Source: a virus. From it: a stretch of 12,071 bases of DNA. A program made the position numbers and the translations under genes. This document shows, one piece after another, positions 545 through 12,071 of the stretch (its first letter is position 1; every line of letters starts with the position of its first letter). The notes beneath the pieces were generated by a model, which saw nothing but the letters and a program-made list of their open reading frames with translations, was not told the origin of the DNA and made no database searches. The DNA is taken from UHGV virus genome UHGV-0371921, one strand, 5' to 3'.

Positions 545-573
545 TTGACACAACGCTTCAGATTTAGTATCAT
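545..573 (+). promoter_or_regulatory. sigma70-like promoter TTGACA-N17-TATCAT
   Basis: TTGACA 545-550, 17 nt spacer, TATCAT 568-573; sits upstream of the HPF-like gene. Confidence 0.5.
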
Positions 574-581
574 TGTTTTCA

Positions 582-606
582 AAGAGGGTTTGGTTCCCTC
601 TTCTTT
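582..606 (+). other. stem-loop in 5' leader (AAGAGGG / CCCTCTT, 7 bp stem, 7 nt loop) followed by TCTTT
   Basis: Perfect inverted repeat 582-588 / 596-602 just after the predicted start site; possible attenuator or leader structure. Confidence 0.4.
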
Positions 607-620
607 AAAAGGAACACGTT

Positions 621-2769: not shown

Positions 2770-3120
2770 ATGAAAGTAGAAATTACTGGTTTTGATGTTA
2801 GTGTGGTTCCGGAAGATATTTTAGCTAACTTACCGGAAGGTTTTGGTAACGGTGTTGTGGTGGATGCTGTTCCTCCTACCAAAGACATTCTGCTGCAGTA
2901 TGGTGTAGCAGAGAAAGATGTCGATAAAGTTCTTACAATGATGGCAATCGATCGTGTTGTCGTTGTTAAAGGTCTCGATAATTTTGAGAGTGATCCTCTG
3001 ATTATTCGCGGAGATGACTACAAAATCATCGATAATGAAGGCCAAGAGTTCTATGAGCCTTGTGCAGAAGATATTCTTAACTTATTACTGGAAGCAGGCA
3101 CCGAAGAGGAGGACGAATAA
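2770..3120 (+). CDS. hypothetical acidic protein (116 aa)
   Basis: ATG follows upstream TAA directly; GAGGTG SD; acidic C-terminus. Confidence 0.7.
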   Translation: MKVEITGFDVSVVPEDILANLPEGFGNGVVVDAVPPTKDILLQYGVAEKDVDKVLTMMAIDRVVVVKGLDNFESDPLIIRGDDYKIIDNEGQEFYEPCAEDILNLLLEAGTEEEDE

Positions 3121-4838: not shown

Positions 4839-4863
4839 AGAGGGGCTTGGGCCCCTCTTTTTA
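4839..4863 (+). terminator. intrinsic terminator (AGAGGGGC-TTGG-GCCCCTCT then TTTTT)
   Basis: Perfect 8 bp GC-rich stem 4839-4846 / 4851-4858 followed by T5 tract. Confidence 0.8.
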
Positions 4864-5550: not shown

Positions 5551-5580
5551 AGGACGCTCTGTGGCGTCCTTTTCTTTATC
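5551..5580 (+). terminator. intrinsic terminator (AGGACGC-TCTGTG-GCGTCCT then TTTCTTTAT)
   Basis: 7 bp stem 5551-5557 / 5564-5570 followed by T-rich tract. Confidence 0.7.
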
Positions 5581-8038: not shown

Positions 8039-8064
8039 ATAGATTATTTACTCAAAAATGATAA

Positions 8065-8084
8065 GCCATGCCATTCGTTTGCAT
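8065..8084. repeat. 20 bp direct repeat GCCATGCCATTCGTTTGCAT, left copy
   Basis: Identical 20-mer recurs at 8296-8315. Confidence 0.8.
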
Positions 8085-8130
8085 GACAATAATTATACAT
8101 GACAATAATCGCACTGATTATAATTAGCAT

Positions 8131-8282
8131 GACATAATATAAAAGCAGGGCAACTATTAGCAGATCTATAGTTGCCTTGCTTGTTATGTCATGATTAACT
8201 GAATACAAGGCAACTATGATCTGATTAATAGATTGCAGACAAACTATCACGGGGGTGATGGTTACTGCTTTTATATTATGTC
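8131..8282. repeat. 16 bp inverted repeat pair GACATAATATAAAAGC (8131-8146) / GCTTTTATATTATGTC (8267-8282) enclosing the palindrome
   Basis: Exact reverse complements. Confidence 0.75.
8149..8176. repeat. 28 bp palindrome GGCAACTAT-N10-ATAGTTGCC (candidate protein-binding site)
   Basis: 9 bp arms are exact reverse complements; further GGCAACTAT copies at 8209-8217 (direct) and 8314-8322 (inverted); 12-mer CAAGGCAACTAT is shared by the arm at 8168-8179 and the copy at 8206-8217. Confidence 0.75.
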
Positions 8283-8295
8283 GCGACTCCGTCGC

Positions 8296-8315
8296 GCCAT
8301 GCCATTCGTTTGCAT
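8296..8315. repeat. 20 bp direct repeat GCCATGCCATTCGTTTGCAT, right copy
   Basis: Identical to 8065-8084; preceded by small hairpin CGCGAC-TCC-GTCGCG (8282-8296). Confidence 0.8.
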
Positions 8316-8929
8316 AGTTGCCTTATTGTTACAGATAGAATAATTGTATTGTTAATTATTTCTTATCTTTCTATTAGTCATCTAATGATTCCAGTTAGTA
8401 TAGTAACGTACAGTAAACATTAGACGACTAAAGATTTCTCTGCTTATGGTAACCTAACGTGACAATTCCAGACTGTTTACGAAAAATGTTGACACTTGGG
8501 CCGATTTATGTTATGCAGTTTACACGAATAATTATTTTATGCAGGTATTGACTATTCCGTTATTCTATGGTTGGAATAAATGCTTAGCAGGCTATAGAAT
8601 GGCGAGCGTACGTAAATTCTGAGATCTGGCGGCTATAGTTATACTCGATTTTTCACGTAGAAAACGCTTTTGTAGTTATGTAAGTGTATGACTTATAAGA
8701 ATTTTTAGTTGTTGACAAGCTATTGAAGATATGCATCAGGTTAAATTTTGTGCAAATGCTGCATTACGTGCAATTTTGGAAGGAAAAACGTGTAAAAATG
8801 GCCCTGCTACCACACAATGAAAAATTATGCAATAGTTATTTTATATGTATGTTTGTACAGTGGGGTTAATTGCTGGCTTGTTGATTATTCCATTTGCCAG
8901 GCGGGGCCATTTGTGGTAGGAAAAGAGGA

Positions 8930-8958
8930 GACAAAAGAAAGGGGCTTTAAGCCCCTGA
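8930..8958 (-). terminator. intrinsic terminator of the leftward gene block (minus RNA: AGGGGCU-UAA-AGCCCCU then UUUCUUUUGUC)
   Basis: 7 bp stem plus U tract on the minus strand, just downstream of the last minus-strand stop codons (8976 / 8987). Confidence 0.7.
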
Positions 8959-8975
8959 CCGTGCACCTTGTTGTA

Positions 8976-9110
8976 TTATTTGTTGCTCATCCAGTTTTCC
9001 CAAGCTGCCTGATAATCTGCCTCACTACGGCGGATCTCTTCTTGCTCTTCAAGGCGGATCTCTTCTTCCAGGTACCCCAAGATGTCAGCCTTTTTGGTCT
9101 GGCGTAACAT
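8976..9110 (-). CDS. alternative -1 frame ORF (44 aa, MLRQTKKADILGYLEEEIRLEEQEEIRRSEADYQAAWENWMSNK), possibly the true C-terminal part of the 9238 gene
   Basis: Protein-like acidic sequence with EEEIR repeat; no strong SD of its own; fully overlapped by the track ORF in another frame. Confidence 0.3.
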   Translation of the reverse strand: MLRQTKKADILGYLEEEIRLEEQEEIRRSEADYQAAWENWMSNK

Positions 9111-9238
9111 CCAATCATCTTTTTACGAGTGAAGATCTTATAAGCTTTCTCGCAAACCTCTTTTTTGCTACCTTTCTGGACTTCAAGAATTCTGTAGGCC
9201 ATGTACTGAACTAATTTAAGCTGATCCAGACGTTTCAT
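8987..9238 (-). CDS. hypothetical protein; 3' half likely out of frame (see frameshift finding)
   Basis: ATG 9238 with AAAGAGGA 7 nt upstream; N-terminal 40 aa protein-like, but residues after about 40 are Lys/Arg/Ser/Trp-rich, typical of out-of-frame translation. Confidence 0.4.
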   Translation of the reverse strand: MKRLDQLKLVQYMAYRILEVQKGSKKEVCEKAYKIFTRKKMIGCYARPKRLTSWGTWKKRSALKSKKRSAVVRQIIRQLGKTG

Positions 9239-9315
9239 GATGTTTCCTCTTTATGTGGTTCGTTTTGATTAGTTGATAATACAGCAGTTCGCAGATCAGT
9301 CTTTAGCAATTCATG

Positions 9316-9534
9316 CTATTTACTCACAACGGTGTCGAAAACAAATTTTTCTTTATTGTCTAAACTCACGTATCCGATTCGACCACGCAAGCCGCAAGTA
9401 GTGCCGTACTCGTAACCATTAAGGCCTTTAACCTTCCAATCCGTACCCATTAAAACCGCATTATATTCCTGACCAACTACAAAAGCGCCCCCAGTCGATT
9501 CAATGCAAACAACTTTAATTTTACGGGTTGTCAT
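9316..9534 (-). CDS. hypothetical protein (72 aa)
   Basis: ATG 9534 with AAGAGAG upstream in a CCACACAAAGAGAG leader. Confidence 0.65.
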   Translation of the reverse strand: MTTRKIKVVCIESTGGAFVVGQEYNAVLMGTDWKVKGLNGYEYGTTCGLRGRIGYVSLDNKEKFVFDTVVSK

Positions 9535-9566
9535 TTTCTTTCTCTCTTTGTGTGGTTCTGATTAGT

Positions 9567-9580
9567 GGGCCTTTTGGCCC
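9567..9580 (-). other. GC-rich stem-loop in 5' leader (GGGCC-AAAA-GGCCC on minus RNA)
   Basis: Perfect 5 bp stem; lies between a candidate promoter and the SD of the 9316..9534 gene. Confidence 0.5.
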
Positions 9581-9588
9581 GTGTCATT

Positions 9589-9617
9589 ATCTTATTACTT
9601 ATGGCGGCAGAATTCAA
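9589..9617 (-). promoter_or_regulatory. candidate sigma70-like promoter TTGAAT-N17-TAAGAT (minus strand)
   Basis: Minus-strand -35 at 9617-9612 and -10 at 9594-9589; overlaps the 3' end of the upstream gene. Confidence 0.3.
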
Positions 9618-9867
9618 GTGTTTTTAATTGATAATCTTCCTCAGCCTGGAGTACGACCGCCTCGATCATTTCGTTGGCATTGTTAAAGCCATAACCTTTA
9701 GCGAACTCATCCGCGCCACCTTCGTGATCATGTTCTGCGTTCATCGCTTCCACAAAATGGAATTCCAAATTGTTGAGGTAGGGGCTTGATGTGCCGTCTT
9801 CTTTTTCGATGAGATCCCAAATAGCATTAAAACGTGATTCGACTTCTTGATTAATCCAGCTTGACAT
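9595..9867 (-). CDS. hypothetical acidic protein (90 aa)
   Basis: ATG 9867 with AGGAGAGAGG upstream. Confidence 0.65.
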   Translation of the reverse strand: MSSWINQEVESRFNAIWDLIEKEDGTSSPYLNNLEFHFVEAMNAEHDHEGGADEFAKGYGFNNANEMIEAVVLQAEEDYQLKTLEFCRHK

Positions 9868-9896
9868 AGTGTTTTCCTCTCTCCTGGTTATTGTGT

Positions 9897-9910
9897 GGGC
9901 ACTTTTGCCC
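9897..9910 (-). other. GC-rich stem-loop in 5' leader (GGGCA-AAAG-TGCCC on minus RNA)
   Basis: Directly downstream of the -10 of the 9922-9950 promoter and upstream of the SD. Confidence 0.5.
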
Positions 9911-9921
9911 CTTCAAGATAA

Positions 9922-9950
9922 ATGTTACCCCACCCCATGGCAGATGTCAA
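9922..9950 (-). promoter_or_regulatory. sigma70-like promoter TTGACA-N17-TAACAT (minus strand)
   Basis: Minus-strand TTGACA at 9950-9945, 17 nt spacer, TAACAT at 9927-9922; in a 210 bp intergenic gap. Confidence 0.45.
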
Positions 9951-10036
9951 CGGTTTTTATAGTTCTTATATGACAGGCAGGCCCGGTGATTGTCTCCACC
10001 CGTCGCCAGGTGCCTGCCGTGAAACAAGTATAACAA

Positions 10037-10064
10037 AAAACAGGACCATTGCAAGCCCTGTTTT
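10037..10064 (-). terminator. candidate intrinsic terminator (minus RNA: AAAACAGG...CCUGUUUU running into a U6 tract)
   Basis: Inverted repeat 10037-10044 / 10057-10064 with 12 nt loop; U tract on the minus strand; immediately after the stop of the 10079..10270 gene. Confidence 0.4.
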
Positions 10065-10078
10065 GTAGTTTATAAGGA

Positions 10079-10270
10079 TTATATTTTTTCGCCTATGTAG
10101 TCCGGTCGGTTTTTCTCTGTCATGCGCTTGAGCAATTCTTGCATGTTGCTTATGGCTTGCAGTGTATCCCCTTCCAGACTTGAATCAACATAATCAGGAT
10201 CGTCTATAACCTTTCTATGATTATGATAACGCAGTACCGCCAATACCTTTCTAACTTGTTCGATATTCAT
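10079..10270 (-). CDS. hypothetical protein (63 aa)
   Basis: ATG 10270; weak SD AAAGAGCG; protein-like sequence. Confidence 0.6.
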   Translation of the reverse strand: MNIEQVRKVLAVLRYHNHRKVIDDPDYVDSSLEGDTLQAISNMQELLKRMTEKNRPDYIGEKI

Positions 10271-10281
10271 TTTATCGCTCT

Positions 10282-10416
10282 TTAAAACAAGGTGCCAACC
10301 GTTCCCAATAGATCACTGACTACCAGGACAATACTGATTAGCACATACCTAACCATAAGGGGAAAGAGCGCCAGCGATCCAGCCACAATCCCCAAGGTGA
10401 TGATTATCTTTCTCAT
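10282..10416 (-). CDS. small hydrophobic protein (44 aa), two predicted transmembrane segments
   Basis: ATG 10416 lies 2 nt after the upstream stop (translational coupling); no clear SD; below track cutoff. Confidence 0.4.
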   Translation of the reverse strand: MRKIIITLGIVAGSLALFPLMVRYVLISIVLVVSDLLGTVGTLF

Positions 10417-10418
10417 GG

Positions 10419-10703
10419 TTAACGGTTTACGTAAGCTTTACCGTTTACGGTGATGGGCAGATCTTCCAGGTCTGGATCTTCCTTAAGGTCGCGAGCAAGC
10501 TCACCGCACCGGATACCCTCGAATCCGTAGTACTCTGTTGTGCCGTCATTAAAAGTTTTAGCGGCAAGGCATAAGCGATAAGTAACCCCGATTTGATTGA
10601 CGGCATGGATATCCGTTAGATTAACCTCTTTTGCCAGCTCTTTAGCCATTACAGGCGCATTAAGTCCAACAACCAGGGCAACTACTGCGATCATCTTTTT
10701 CAT
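10419..10703 (-). CDS. small secreted or periplasmic protein with N-terminal signal peptide (94 aa, two Cys)
   Basis: ATG 10703 with AAGAGG 9 nt upstream; MKKMIAVVALVVGLNAPVMA-KEL has positive n-region, hydrophobic core and AxA-like cleavage motif. Confidence 0.7.
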   Translation of the reverse strand: MKKMIAVVALVVGLNAPVMAKELAKEVNLTDIHAVNQIGVTYRLCLAAKTFNDGTTEYYGFEGIRCGELARDLKEDPDLEDLPITVNGKAYVNR

Positions 10704-10731
10704 TGTGTCTAGCCTCTTTCTGCTACGTTTA

Positions 10732-10749
10732 AGGCGGCGGTAACCGCCT
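10732..10749 (-). other. GC-rich stem-loop in 5' leader (AGGCGG / CCGCCT, 6 nt loop)
   Basis: Perfect 6 bp inverted repeat upstream of the SD of the signal-peptide gene. Confidence 0.45.
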
Positions 10750-10794
10750 GTTTATGATTTATTGGTTAATTTTCAGGTATCGCTATAAATTAAA

Positions 10795-11010
10795 CTATGC
10801 TGTACGCTCAACTATAACAACGGTTTGCGGGATCTCACCTTCCACCACTATCAAGGCCTTTTTCTGCGTGATGGATATCTTTACCCGTTGCAGCGTGGCG
10901 GTGAAGTCTTTCATTTCGTCACGTGGTGTTTTAGTGCAATGCCAGATCTCTGGCTTGCCGATCTGCAAGCCTCGCAAGAATTCCGTTTTACCTGTCTTAT
11001 TCGTGATCAT
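10795..11010 (-). CDS. hypothetical protein (71 aa from ATG 11010; track extends to ATG 11034)
   Basis: ATG 11010 has AAGGTG 6 nt upstream, whereas ATG 11034 has no SD; more protein-like than the two overlapping plus-strand ORFs. Confidence 0.5.
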   Translation of the reverse strand: MITNKTGKTEFLRGLQIGKPEIWHCTKTPRDEMKDFTATLQRVKISITQKKALIVVEGEIPQTVVIVERTA

Positions 11011-11020
11011 TTGATTCACC

Positions 11021-11125
11021 TTAACCGATACCATGGGAAGATAGGATCATGTTAGCCATAGTTGCAACCACTCCAACCGATAATGCCAGGCCAACTACTA
11101 CAACCGTGAAAATTTTATCTAACAT
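11021..11125 (-). CDS. small hydrophobic peptide (34 aa, MLDKIFTVVVVGLALSVGVVATMANMILSSHGIG)
   Basis: ATG 11125 with GAGGG about 7 nt upstream; single hydrophobic helix; below track cutoff. Confidence 0.35.
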   Translation of the reverse strand: MLDKIFTVVVVGLALSVGVVATMANMILSSHGIG

Positions 11126-11144
11126 GATTCTACCCTCATTAATG

Positions 11145-11161
11145 GCGGGAAGTATTCCCGC
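11145..11161 (-). other. stem-loop GCGGGAA-GTA-TTCCCGC (7 bp stem, 3 nt loop)
   Basis: Perfect palindrome just upstream of the SD of the 11021..11125 peptide. Confidence 0.45.
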
Positions 11162-11207
11162 GCTATGTAGTACACTTTACCAGATTGTTGACTGTTGTCA
11201 AACTATT

Positions 11208-11387
11208 TTAACGATAATCATCATATGCTTTATTGACCTGGCGAATATAACATTCAAAAGCTAGATCAATAGATTTATATTCACGGATATATTCACCATA
11301 GGAAACCACATACATTTCTATAGCTTCCTCATATGCGAGAAGAATAGAATCTAAGCCTACGATCTCAGTCTTTGCAATAATAGCCAT
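11208..11387 (-). CDS. hypothetical acidic protein (59 aa, MAIIAKTEIVGLDSILLAYEEAIEMYVVSYGEYIREYKSIDLAFECYIRQVNKAYDDYR)
   Basis: ATG 11387 with AAAGAGGA upstream in a CCACAAAGAGGA leader; shares the MAI start context with the 12036 gene; missing from track because below 60 aa. Confidence 0.5.
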   Translation of the reverse strand: MAIIAKTEIVGLDSILLAYEEAIEMYVVSYGEYIREYKSIDLAFECYIRQVNKAYDDYR

Positions 11388-11413
11388 GATTTTTTATCCT
11401 CTTTGTGGTTGGT

Positions 11414-11428
11414 GGGGCTTGTTGCCCC
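11414..11428 (-). other. GC-rich stem-loop in 5' leader (GGGGC-AACAA-GCCCC on minus RNA)
   Basis: Perfect 5 bp stem upstream of the SD of the 11208..11387 gene. Confidence 0.5.
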
Positions 11429-11463
11429 CTTTGATTTATATACTACAGTCTTATATGGTCATG

Positions 11464-11697
11464 TCAACTATTTTCAAAAAATTTTTCTGCTGTGATATTT
11501 TTCCCGGTAGGGTTCGCTACTTTCAAAATTTTATCATGCACTGGACGCCCAAAAGAATAAGATCCGTATACAGTAAACCAATAATCGCCGTCAGGTTGTA
11601 CTATTACCGCCGCATATGGTACGCCTTTTTCGTTTTTGCTGACAAAATAGATCACATTGCCATTAATAGCCTCAGCGCGTTTAATTTGTTCCATCAT
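11464..11697 (-). CDS. hypothetical protein (77 aa)
   Basis: ATG 11697 with AGAGAGG upstream. Confidence 0.6.
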   Translation of the reverse strand: MMEQIKRAEAINGNVIYFVSKNEKGVPYAAVIVQPDGDYWFTVYGSYSFGRPVHDKILKVANPTGKNITAEKFFENS

Positions 11698-11727
11698 GAT
11701 GATTTACCTCTCTTTATTTTCATAATT

Positions 11728-11744
11728 GGGGCCTTTTCGGCCCC
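11728..11744 (-). other. GC-rich stem-loop (GGGGCC-GAAAA-GGCCCC on minus RNA)
   Basis: Perfect 6 bp GC stem between the stop of the 11752 gene and the SD of the 11697 gene. Confidence 0.5.
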
Positions 11745-11751
11745 GCCAGGT

Positions 11752-12036
11752 TTATTTATTGATAGCGTGCAGCGGGAAAGGTACGCCAGGTTGATAGATA
11801 ACTTTTACAACCTCATCAGGGCAAAAGAAATTGCAGAATTCACCCTGATAAGCCTCATCCTCTTTCAATTCTTCATCAACATACTCAAAAAAGTAGTCGA
11901 TGCTTGGATAATCCTGGCCGGGATTATAGTCTACCATCGTTAATAACAATTCTTGATCATTCCGTAGGATATGCATACCCGCTTTTAAGTATTTTGCTTC
12001 CATTTCCACTACATCGCCAACGGTGACAATAGCCAT
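11752..12036 (-). CDS. hypothetical acidic protein (94 aa)
   Basis: ATG 12036 with AGGAG about 8 nt upstream; protein-like; the overlapping 185 aa plus-strand ORF looks like an antisense artefact. Confidence 0.65.
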   Translation of the reverse strand: MAIVTVGDVVEMEAKYLKAGMHILRNDQELLLTMVDYNPGQDYPSIDYFFEYVDEELKEDEAYQGEFCNFFCPDEVVKVIYQPGVPFPLHAINK

Positions 12037-12071
12037 GATTTTAACTCCTATCTATCCACGCACTCGTCTGA

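Follow-up and report, generated by a model that had tools for sequence, protein, structure and literature searches.

What is the role of the short GC-rich hairpins that repeatedly precede small genes in the leftward arm of the virus genome UHGV-0371921? The stretch analyzed here (the window) is 12,071 nucleotides (nt) long, and a first-pass annotation had described six palindromes between 9567 and 11744 of it, each ahead of a leftward gene. We confirm that this observation is real and more general than that annotation saw: the hairpins are parts of promoter/hairpin/leader units that recur in related phages and at which genes are gained and lost. With moderate confidence, we propose that these units are modular early-gene cassettes of an rV5-like phage, in which the hairpin would be an RNA end-protecting or insulating structure and the repeated parts would drive the shuffling of open reading frames (ORFs).

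A megablast search with positions 8800-12071 returned 248 phage records, the best of them Escherichia phage APECc02 (97.4% identity); all good matches were rV5-like myoviruses of the genus Vequintavirus, and one IMG/VR contig is 99.97% identical to the window. By these matches, the window is assigned to the early arm of an rV5-like coliphage of the genus Vequintavirus. Its leftward genes, running from 12036 to 8976, converge on rightward genes that occupy positions 1 to ~8000. In annotated relatives, the corresponding stretch is a co-directional array of very small hypothetical genes beside the genome end or non-coding region, where annotation records no signals beyond a few predicted sigma70 promoters and terminators. 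The products encoded downstream of the hairpin modules are hypothetical proteins of 34-94 aa.

Hairpins without U tracts in the leftward arm

All six palindromes were found exactly where the first-pass annotation had placed them, 18-35 nt upstream of a leftward ATG.

9567-9580: palindrome GGGCCttttGGCCC
9897-9910: palindrome GGGCActttTGCCC
10732-10749: palindrome AGGCGGcggtaaCCGCCT
11145-11161: palindrome GCGGGAAgtaTTCCCGC
11414-11428: palindrome GGGGCttgttGCCCC
11728-11744: palindrome GGGGCCttttcGGCCCC

Under a strict definition (perfect stem of at least 5 bp, at least 4 GC pairs, loop of 3-7 nt), the region 8976-12071 contains 7 hairpins vs 1.26 +/- 1.06 expected, a 5.5-fold enrichment over dinucleotide shuffles, none of which reached 7 in 500 attempts; six of the seven fall in the intergenic 23% of the region (binomial p = 8e-4). 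Over the whole APECc02 genome, hairpin density is 3.4 per kb in intergenic vs 0.44 per kb in coding sequence (7.7-fold). Folded as coding-strand RNA, the six window hairpins reach -8 to -15 kcal/mol, and the comparison with shuffled controls, which had been proposed as a check, gave z-scores from -0.95 to -3.6. The six perfect GC stems share a G-first polarity, and the loops differ (AAAA, AAAG, AACAA, GAAAA, UAC, and UUACCG). The earlier statements that no U tract follows on the coding strand and that these are not canonical terminators both hold: the 8 nt after each stem contain 0-3 T, so that the defining feature of an intrinsic terminator, a U tract 3' of the stem, is absent from all six, whereas the true terminators of the same arm have T tails (6 T in 8 nt after the 8940-8956 stem and a six-T run directly after the 10037-10064 stem).

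8940-8956, minus strand: canonical intrinsic terminator that ends the leftward arm, AGGGGCTtaaAGCCCCT plus TTCTTTTG; a terminator in the Gotham and EdH4 annotations
10037-10064, minus strand: canonical intrinsic terminator after gene 10079-10270, with an 11-bp stem and a T run; a terminator in the EdH4 annotation

The sole coding-region hairpin of the arm, GGCTTGCcgatctGCAAGCC (10952-10971), lies inside gene 10795-11034. L009, a phi92/phAPEC8-like locus from IMG/VR, has GGCTTAC..GTAAGCC at the same codons, a double, synonymous change that keeps the pairing; this hairpin could be due to chance or could be an internal RNA structure.

Architecture of the cassettes

Four of the six hairpins belong to full cassettes with a promoter, and two to hairpin-only modules. 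One further leader without a hairpin precedes gene 8987-9238, and a copy of the module is present in the rightward arm.

9535-9617, minus strand: cassette 1, before gene 9316-9534 (72 aa); promoter, 8-nt spacer, hairpin, and leader
9617-9612 and 9594-9589, minus strand: cassette 1 promoter, -35 TTGAAT and -10 TAAGAT, 17-nt spacing, match 8/12
9580-9567, minus strand: cassette 1 hairpin GGGCCaaaaGGCCC, -10.7 kcal/mol, z -3.6
9566-9535, minus strand: cassette 1 leader ACTAATCAGAACCACACAAAGAGAGAAAGAAA
9868-9950, minus strand: cassette 2, before gene 9595-9867 (90 aa); 11-nt spacer, CA-rich leader with a Shine-Dalgarno (SD) sequence
9950-9922, minus strand: cassette 2 promoter TTGACA-17-TAACAT, match 10/12
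9910-9897, minus strand: cassette 2 hairpin GGGCAaaagTGCCC
10704-10749, minus strand: hairpin-only module before gene 10419-10703 (94 aa); AGGCGGttaccgCCGCCT at 10749-10732 with leader and SD
11126-11201, minus strand: cassette 4, before a 34-aa membrane ORF (11021-11125); promoter, spacer gtactACATAGc, hairpin, and leader
11201-11174, minus strand: cassette 4 promoter TTGACA-16-TAAAGT, match 10/12
11161-11145, minus strand: cassette 4 hairpin GCGGGAAtacTTCCCGC, followed by leader CATTAATGAGGGTAGAATC
11388-11467, minus strand: cassette 5, before gene 11208-11387 (59 aa); 11-nt spacer, leader ACCAACCACAAAGAGGATAAAAAATC
11467-11440, minus strand: cassette 5 promoter TTGACA-16-TAGTAT, match 10/12
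11428-11414, minus strand: cassette 5 hairpin GGGGCaacaaGCCCC
11698-11744, minus strand: hairpin-only module before gene 11464-11697 (77 aa); GGGGCCgaaaaGGCCCC at 11744-11728 with leader and SD
9239-9275, minus strand: hairpin-less, unstructured leader CAACTAATCAAAACGAACCACATAAAGAGGAAACATC before gene 8987-9238, a direct repeat of the cassette 1 leader
545-620, plus strand: rightward-arm copy of the module; TTGACA-17-TATCAT at 545-573, 8-nt spacer, leader, and ATG at 621
582-602, plus strand: rightward-arm hairpin AAGAGGGtttggttCCCTCTT, equivalent to 41830-41850 of APECc02

The first-pass annotation had recognized two hairpins behind sigma70-like promoters; both stand, and the count rises to four with the previously missed promoters at 11467-11440 and 11201-11174. 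Its placement of the hairpins at transcript 5' ends accordingly applies, as predicted ends, to four of the six: no convincing promoter was found upstream of the 10704-10749 module, and neither the 10732-10749 nor the 11728-11744 hairpin has a credible one. The leader CCACA(C/T)AAAGAG, said to be common to three genes, is exact at genes 9238 and 9534, whose leaders are similar as far as ACTAATCA(G/A)AAC, and gene 11387 has an abbreviated variant, CCACAAAGAGG. The small gene behind the 11145-11161 hairpin starts at 11125 (34 aa), which corrects the earlier description.

In the four promoter cassettes (hairpins at 9567, 9897, 11145, and 11414), the gaps from the -10 box to the hairpin are 8, 11, 12, and 11 nt, the hairpin starts at ~+2 to +7 of the predicted transcript, and the promoters are preceded by AAAA-rich tracts. 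The cassette 2 promoter is also annotated in rV5 (P168) and Gotham; it lies directly downstream of the canonical terminator 10064-10037, and therefore no read-through would be left there for its hairpin to attenuate. The cassette 5 hairpin is called a "putative terminator" in the EdH4 annotation, on delta-G alone. The 11744-11728 hairpin begins 7 nt past the stop codon of gene 11752-12036.

Recurrence in the genome and in other phage groups

A genome-wide search for the module had been suggested, its absence from other intergenic regions being named as an argument against it; other intergenic regions do carry the module. The 50 intergenic hairpins of APECc02 form two classes, namely canonical terminators with 5-7 T in the tail, and U-less hairpins that lie 8-12 nt past a promoter (match at least 8/12) and end 18-35 nt before an ATG. 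Hairpin-bearing cassettes cluster at 23.7-33 kb of this genome, with single copies at 5.4 and 41.8 kb, and the distance from promoter to next hairpin, taken over all promoter-like matches in the genome, peaks at 8-12 nt.

APECc02, promoter-linked U-less hairpins: 5425, 24538, 27087, 27804, 30263, 30918, 32440, 32770, 41830
APECc02, promoter-less U-less hairpins: 30600, 31600, 44814

Similar cassettes occur outside the genus. The leftward early arm of Justusliebigvirus PD06 (phi92-like, Stephanstirmvirinae) has ~11 very regular copies of the form TTGACA-16/17-TAnnnT, 5 nt, ACATAG or ACGTAG, hairpin (GGCGGGAAAtggTTTCCCGCC or GGCGGCAatggTGCCGCC), CA-rich leader with SD, and ATG. In Cronobacter phage CR8 (Certrevirus), an ACATAG-hairpin leader follows ~8-9 of the ~21 early promoters of that arm. 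An exact-pattern scan of IMG/VR for the 15-mer ACATAGGGCGGGRAA found 36 contigs, with a genuine cassette context in three, each ~149 kb and belonging to these phage groups; the remaining contigs look like chance matches, and a rough chance expectation for the collection exceeds the observed count.

In 85 candidate promoter-hairpin pairs pooled from the window, APECc02, PD06, L009, and Vequintavirus loci, the distance from -10 to hairpin peaks at 10-13 nt. A second survey with CR8 added, thus covering four phage groups, gave a mode of 10 nt and, for compact hairpins, a much looser hairpin-to-ATG distance of ~13-30 nt. This tight spacing to the -10 box and loose spacing to the ATG suggest that the hairpin is tied to the promoter and transcript start, and not to the start codon or the upstream stop.

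As a separate observation, several paralogous 5' hairpins of CR8 (L026) with the form GCGACGC-acacc-GCGCCGC, e.g., at sense positions 3064, 4674, and 7304, have a common A.C mismatch on the coding strand, which would be G.U on the opposite strand.

Conservation of the hairpins among relatives

We aligned the six intergenic regions across 17 Vequintavirus genomes, and in nearly all variants a hairpin still forms at the same site. The loops vary freely (aaaa to ggga/gaaa, aaag to aagg, ttaccg to ttactg, gaaaa to gataa, and insertions or deletions of 1-3 nt). Stem changes are few, and two C-to-T substitutions keep a coding-strand G:U pair (in PMBT16 at the 9567 hairpin and in EduardKellenberger at the 9897 hairpin). 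The 9567 hairpin itself persists in 17 relatives, where its loop varies and one G:U variant occurs. In some genomes, the whole hairpin is replaced: the 9897 hairpin by a 7-bp GGGGCAAgacgtTTGCCCC in PDX and C2, and the 11145 hairpin by GGGCG..CGCCC in four relatives. Among phi92-like phages, GGGGCGgtaaCGCCCC takes the place of the window's AGGCGGttaccgCCGCCT before the ortholog of gene 10703, and the ortholog of gene 11464-11697 is preceded by a full promoter plus GCGGGAAgtggtTTCCCGC cassette. The freedom of the loops, together with the kept stems and swapped hairpins, indicates that selection acts on the presence of a stem-loop and not on a particular sequence.

The loop of the 10732 hairpin is inverted between relatives, the sense strand reading TTACCG in the window vs CGGTGA in Mangalyan and EduardKellenberger, with a related TGA-loop variant in YN3 (loci L012, L014, and L021 carry the variants). 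This inversion is the signature of a template switch at a quasi-palindrome. RNAalifold run on a MAFFT alignment of 20 paralogous ACATAG cassettes found no consensus pairs; the stem and loop lengths of these copies differ and their arms are out of register, and therefore covariation rests on the orthologous comparisons.

Cassettes as sites of gene gain and loss

The gene content of the leftward arm differs among close relatives. In blastn comparisons with 12 of them, the breaks in colinearity lie within the intergenic modules, where the alignments on either side overlap over 15-46 nt. For instance, a copy of the leader ACTAATCAnAAC..CCACAyAAAGAG stands on each side of gene 9316-9534, which is absent from four relatives (EdH4, PMBT16, JEP1, and MaxTheCat); in these, the cassette 1 promoter and hairpin are fused, via a hybrid leader, to gene 9238. 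The leader at 9239-9275 is the evident recombination partner for this loss. Cassette 4 is the junction for one- and two-gene insertions: at the position of 11131-11145, EdH4, MaxBurger, and PMBT16 have one additional ORF and, after it, another complete promoter-hairpin cassette, and Mangalyan has two additional ORFs. In place of the window's single recombinant cassette, which is joined at CATTAATGAGGGTA, EdH4 has two in tandem. Every inserted ORF carries its own promoter, hairpin, and leader. In ECP32, three genes are missing, and the 11728 hairpin module is fused directly to gene 11034 (10795-11034). Because promoter, hairpin, and leader are each repeated many times, they provide short homologies for deletion, insertion, and exchange of ORFs between related phages, as the aligned junctions show; these junctions lie mostly in the leader/SD repeat and not in the palindrome.

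Four single small ORFs (9595-9867, 10795-11034, 11208-11387, and 11464-11697) have DNA or protein homologs in unrelated phages, including jumbo phages, Kayfunavirus, phages with T1-like/Drexlerviridae-size genomes, and phi92/phAPEC8-like phages. This distribution is consistent with horizontal movement of single-ORF modules. A protein-anchored search of IMG/VR yielded only four loci. A link to RB49, considered on account of the annotation of rV5 ORF167, proved unsupported: in a tblastn search with the 90-aa protein (E <= 1e-5), RB49 was not among the 40 of 148 hit records listed, and the protein matched unrelated phages of ~45-50 kb instead.

Comparison with PeSL elements and other known systems

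Arrangements of this kind were described in the T4-like phage pairs RB49/phi1, PST/T4, and nt-1/KVP40 as PeSL, for promoter-early stem-loop (Arbiol et al., 2010, PMC2839356; Comeau et al., 2014, PMC4122927). PeSL are cassettes of a sigma70 promoter and a stem-loop of the type GN-loop-CN, located before ORFans in hyperplastic regions, between the upstream stop codon and the SD and ATG of the ORFan; degraded half copies exist. They fall into five positional subclasses, one of which has the stem-loop downstream of the -10 box, and recombination between copies leads to indels and mini-circles, with crossovers mapped within the stem-loop (PMC2839356, PMC4122927). The cassettes of the window likewise combine an A/T-rich upstream tract, a near-consensus sigma70 promoter, a G-run/C-run stem-loop, an SD, and the ATG of a small ORFan. 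The promoter is present in four of the six modules (three matching 10/12 and one 8/12), the other two being "half" cassettes, and the stem-loop in all six, as perfect G-first GC stems of -8 to -15 kcal/mol. In both systems, many copies, including half copies, are clustered in a plastic early region, and the cassettes contain the junctions of the indels and replacements by which close relatives differ. All defining features of PeSL that can be read from sequence are thus present, and the cassettes form a close parallel, a probable counterpart of PeSL in an unrelated phage lineage. Neither this parallel nor the gene-bounding role of the cassettes figured in the first-pass annotation.

Several differences remain. 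The lineage here is Vequintavirinae/Stephanstirmvirinae, whereas PeSL are known from T4-like phages, a difference in taxonomic rather than mechanistic scope. In RB49/phi1 the PeSL stem-loop lies mostly between the -35 box and the -10 box or over the latter, whereas the hairpins described here occupy one fixed site, 8-13 nt past the -10 box, inside the cassette's own transcript. Further distinguishing traits are the ACATAG box in a subfamily of the cassettes, the lack of a U tract, and junctions that lie mostly in the leader/SD repeat.

Among other RNA elements, the closest in design are the 5'-terminal stabilizers (ompA, papA, and synthetic 5' hairpins; work of Emory, Bouvet, Arnold, and Bricker & Belasco), which also have a short stable hairpin near the 5' end and an unstructured leader with the ribosome-binding site, and share the proposed effect of hindering 5'-end-dependent decay by RppH and RNase E. 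They differ in that the 2-7 unpaired nt predicted here exceed the best, near-flush layout, and in that some of our copies are internal and lack a promoter. Intrinsic terminators share the GC-rich stem of 5-8 bp, the loop of 3-6 nt, and the intergenic position after a stop codon, but the hairpins studied here lack a U tract and lie downstream of the next promoter, and this arm also has canonical terminators. Lambdoid nut sites are similar in having a promoter-proximal 5-bp GC stem with an A-rich loop, and the GAAAA loop of GGGGCCgaaaaGGCCCC is that of lambda boxB; however, the present hairpins have many copies with unrelated loops that are not conserved in orthologs, no N-like factor was identified, and a search of the coding strand for boxA (CGCTCTTTA-like) gave no match adjoining any hairpin. 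The morons of temperate phages are also self-contained units between genes with their own promoter, but our cassettes form tandem co-directional arrays in the early region of a lytic phage and have the hairpin 5' of the gene instead of a 3' terminator.

An Rfam 15 scan of 8700-12071 at E <= 1 gave only two sub-threshold chance matches. Two further candidates were rejected. For hairpin promoters of the N4 type, read by a virion RNA polymerase, the obstacle is that consensus sigma70 promoters precede the hairpins and no giant gene resembling such a polymerase is annotated; for RNase III sites, it is that the stems have only 5-8 bp. The rV5 genome paper lists 33 promoters and 20 terminators and leaves promoter-proximal hairpins unmentioned, and the Certrevirus paper describes the promoter alone.

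Proposed function of the hairpins and alternative explanations

A full cassette has four parts. The first is a near-consensus sigma70 promoter within an A-rich upstream tract, which unmodified host RNA polymerase would read. A GC-rich stem-loop of 5-8 bp follows 8-13 nt later and is predicted to be the first structure in the mRNA (~+2 to +7). Next comes an unstructured leader, poor in G and rich in CA, with the SD, and last the ATG of a small ORFan. The most likely function of the hairpin itself is an end-protecting or insulating one. On the cassette's own transcript it may limit access of RppH and RNase E to the 5' end, and on read-through or processed polycistronic RNA it may form a stable 3' or 5' boundary between cistrons. 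It may further prevent foreign upstream sequence from pairing with the leader and SD, so that an ORF moved together with its cassette would be expressed in any context. Under this proposal the hairpin would not be an efficient intrinsic terminator, and the hairpin-only modules at 10732-10749 and 11728-11744 would be half-cassettes or intercistronic versions of the same element.

This role is favored because the hairpin appears tied to the transcript start, because an attenuator would be redundant in three cassettes, and because of two precedents. The three cassettes lie directly after a canonical terminator, namely the one in the window (terminator 10064-10037, promoter 9950-9922, then hairpin), that at 30263 of APECc02, and that at 107-121 of EdH4. 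First, 5'-terminal stem-loops are reported to stabilize E. coli mRNAs (Emory, 1992; Bouvet & Belasco, 1992; Arnold, 1998). Second, according to its genome paper, rV5 encodes a probable homolog (gp11) of T4 Srd, a protein that stimulates RNase E on host mRNA; such a homolog would provide a rationale for protected 5' ends on phage transcripts.

Several points weigh against the end-protecting role. The literature on Vequintavirus, phi92, and phAPEC8 yielded no transcript maps, so the transcription start sites are predictions. Placed 7 +/- 1 nt past the -10 box, they leave ~1-2 unpaired 5' nt in cassette 1 and ~3-7 in the others, and RppH needs only at least 2 unpaired 5' nt; classical 5' stabilization would be partial in most cassettes and ideal only in cassette 1, with its 8-nt spacer. 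Scanning RNase E easily bypasses simple stem-loops orthogonal to the RNA path (PMC9943677), two of the six hairpins lack a promoter, and in the original PeSL work one stem-loop was a strong terminator in a reporter. The hairpin is also optional in APECc02, where it accompanies ~8-9 of 44 strong gene-proximal promoters (match at least 10/12), the remaining ones having short unstructured leaders of 20-30 nt; it therefore seems dispensable for early expression. Among the orthologs, three stem changes weaken the terminal pair, and a deletion destroys the 11414 hairpin in Gotham. Finally, the count of G:U vs A:C pairs by strand is mixed, with sense G:U in several Vequintavirus and phi92-like stems and a recurrent sense A.C in CR8.

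The terminator/attenuator interpretation of the PeSL authors remains the main rival, and an unlikely one in our assessment. It holds that the hairpins stop or damp transcription from upstream cassettes, leaving each ORF mainly to its own promoter, and that their position reflects only the lack of other non-coding space. Indeed, this is the function proposed for PeSL stem-loops, of which PeSL211/210 cut lacZ expression as much as rrnB T1. The hairpins of the window lie just past upstream stop codons (14 nt at 9567, in the APECc02 equivalent, and 7 nt at 11728), and, since the 3' ends of upstream genes extend into the promoters, non-coding space first becomes free downstream of the -10 box. The hairpin-only modules also fit, and the 11414 hairpin was called a terminator by the EdH4 annotators. 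What tells against attenuation is the composition and the position of the hairpins: with 0-3 T in 8 nt they lack a U tract, in a phage that has canonical U-tract terminators at the ends of arms and operons; as attenuators they would be redundant in the three cassettes immediately behind such a terminator; they would also be contained within the cassette's own transcript; and their spacing to the -10 box is much tighter than that to the stop codon or the ATG.

Somewhat more doubtful is specific recognition, in which the ACATAG box with its G-first hairpin (e.g., GGCGGGAAAtggTTTCCCGCC) would be bound, as RNA or DNA, by a phage or host factor co-regulating the early genes; such a factor might act in antitermination or processivity, protect RNA, or serve as a shut-off repressor. 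In its broader form, to which we assign the same low probability, the box and hairpin would be a dedicated cis-regulatory leader that marks a factor-recognized early regulon and doubles as an address tag of mobile ORFan cassettes. Such a leader would be common to rV5-like, phi92/phAPEC8-like, and CR3/CR8-like myoviruses and would operate, e.g., via protection from Srd-stimulated RNase E, antitermination, or timed shut-off. The paralogs in PD06, CR8, and L009 keep ACATAG or ACGTAG together with a stem of the GCGG(G/C)AA..TTCCCGC type while promoter spacers and leaders differ, but this similarity could stem from recombination or gene conversion between cassettes. All stems are G-first, the CR8 paralogs retain the same A.C mismatch, and a genuine cassette context of the 15-mer is confined to ~149-kb myoviruses, in 3 of the 36 IMG/VR contigs that carry it. 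Yet the six window hairpins share neither stem sequence nor loop, their orthologous loops mutate freely (as in aaaa to ggga), whole hairpins are swapped for unrelated ones, and there is neither a boxA-like partner beside any hairpin nor an Rfam family.

It is improbable that the palindromes act at the DNA level only, as hot spots of recombination or template switching or as by-products of cassette spread, with no role in RNA. The location of gene gain and loss junctions within the cassettes would suit such an origin, as would the crossovers mapped inside the PeSL stem-loop and the loop inversion at 10732 (TTACCG vs CGGTGA), which is typical of a template switch at a quasi-palindrome; moreover, the G:U vs A:C count gives no proof of a sense-RNA structure. 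However, the junctions observed here fall mostly in the leader/SD repeat and not in the palindrome, and two orthologous stem substitutions pair only as sense-strand G:U. The fixed distance to the -10 box, the constant orientation in the 5' untranslated region, and the unrelated replacements at the same site argue for selection on a feature of the transcript. Least plausible are antisense terminators, in which the T-rich complement of the -10 box and spacer would follow the hairpin on the opposite strand and block transcription from the convergent arm: only two of the six hairpins (10732-10749 and 11414-11428) are flagged as terminator-like on the plus strand, the antisense tail of the ACATAG type, CTATGTGAT.., has no T run, and strong bidirectional terminators already close the arm.

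Other features of the window

Two terminator-like sites were observed in the rightward arm. The hairpin AGAGGGGCttggGCCCCTCT at 4839-4858, which is followed by a T-rich tail on either strand and preceded closely by a weak promoter-like site, looks like a bidirectional terminator; a canonical plus-strand terminator is located at 5551-5570.

Gene 8976-9238 (minus strand) has, at 9110-9125, a 1-nt deletion in an A6 run relative to APECc02 and rV5. It splits a conserved 264-nt gene (87 aa), which carries the odd label "DNA translocase FtsK" in APECc02, into the overlapping frames 8987-9238 and 8976-9110, and is either a sequencing (homopolymer) error or a genuine frameshift.

The region ~8040-8970 between the convergent arms is mostly non-coding and contains several repeats: a perfect 20-nt direct repeat, GCCATGCCATTCGTTTGCAT, at 8065 and 8296; a perfect 18-nt inverted repeat at 8131-8148 and 8265-8282; and a palindrome, CGCGACtccGTCGCG, at 8282-8296, which is kept in all relatives. 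Its counterpart on the rV5 map is the "non-coding" box, and the annotated terminal repeat of Gotham is close by; the region may serve in packaging or replication or be a terminus.

In the leftward arm, about 20 records labeled "Campylobacter phage", many of them UNVERIFIED, share 92-100% identity with rV5-like phages of E. coli; they are probably coliphage contaminants or records with mislabeled hosts.

Implications for large virulent myoviruses

If the proposed cassettes are real functional units, gene shuffling by promoter/stem-loop repeats would not be peculiar to T4-like phages and would represent a recurrent design of large virulent myoviruses that depend on the host polymerase. Early transcription units could then be annotated by a simple rule in the more than 300 rV5-, phi92-, and CR3-like therapeutic phages that have been sequenced, and the cassettes would offer defined junctions at which to engineer or delete accessory ORFs. 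They would also supply natural, compact promoter/5'-untranslated-region parts, with and without a 5' hairpin, for examining the influence of 5' structure on the fate of mRNA during infection. The unusual fixed site of the hairpin at the transcript start would make the question of terminator or 5' protector directly testable.

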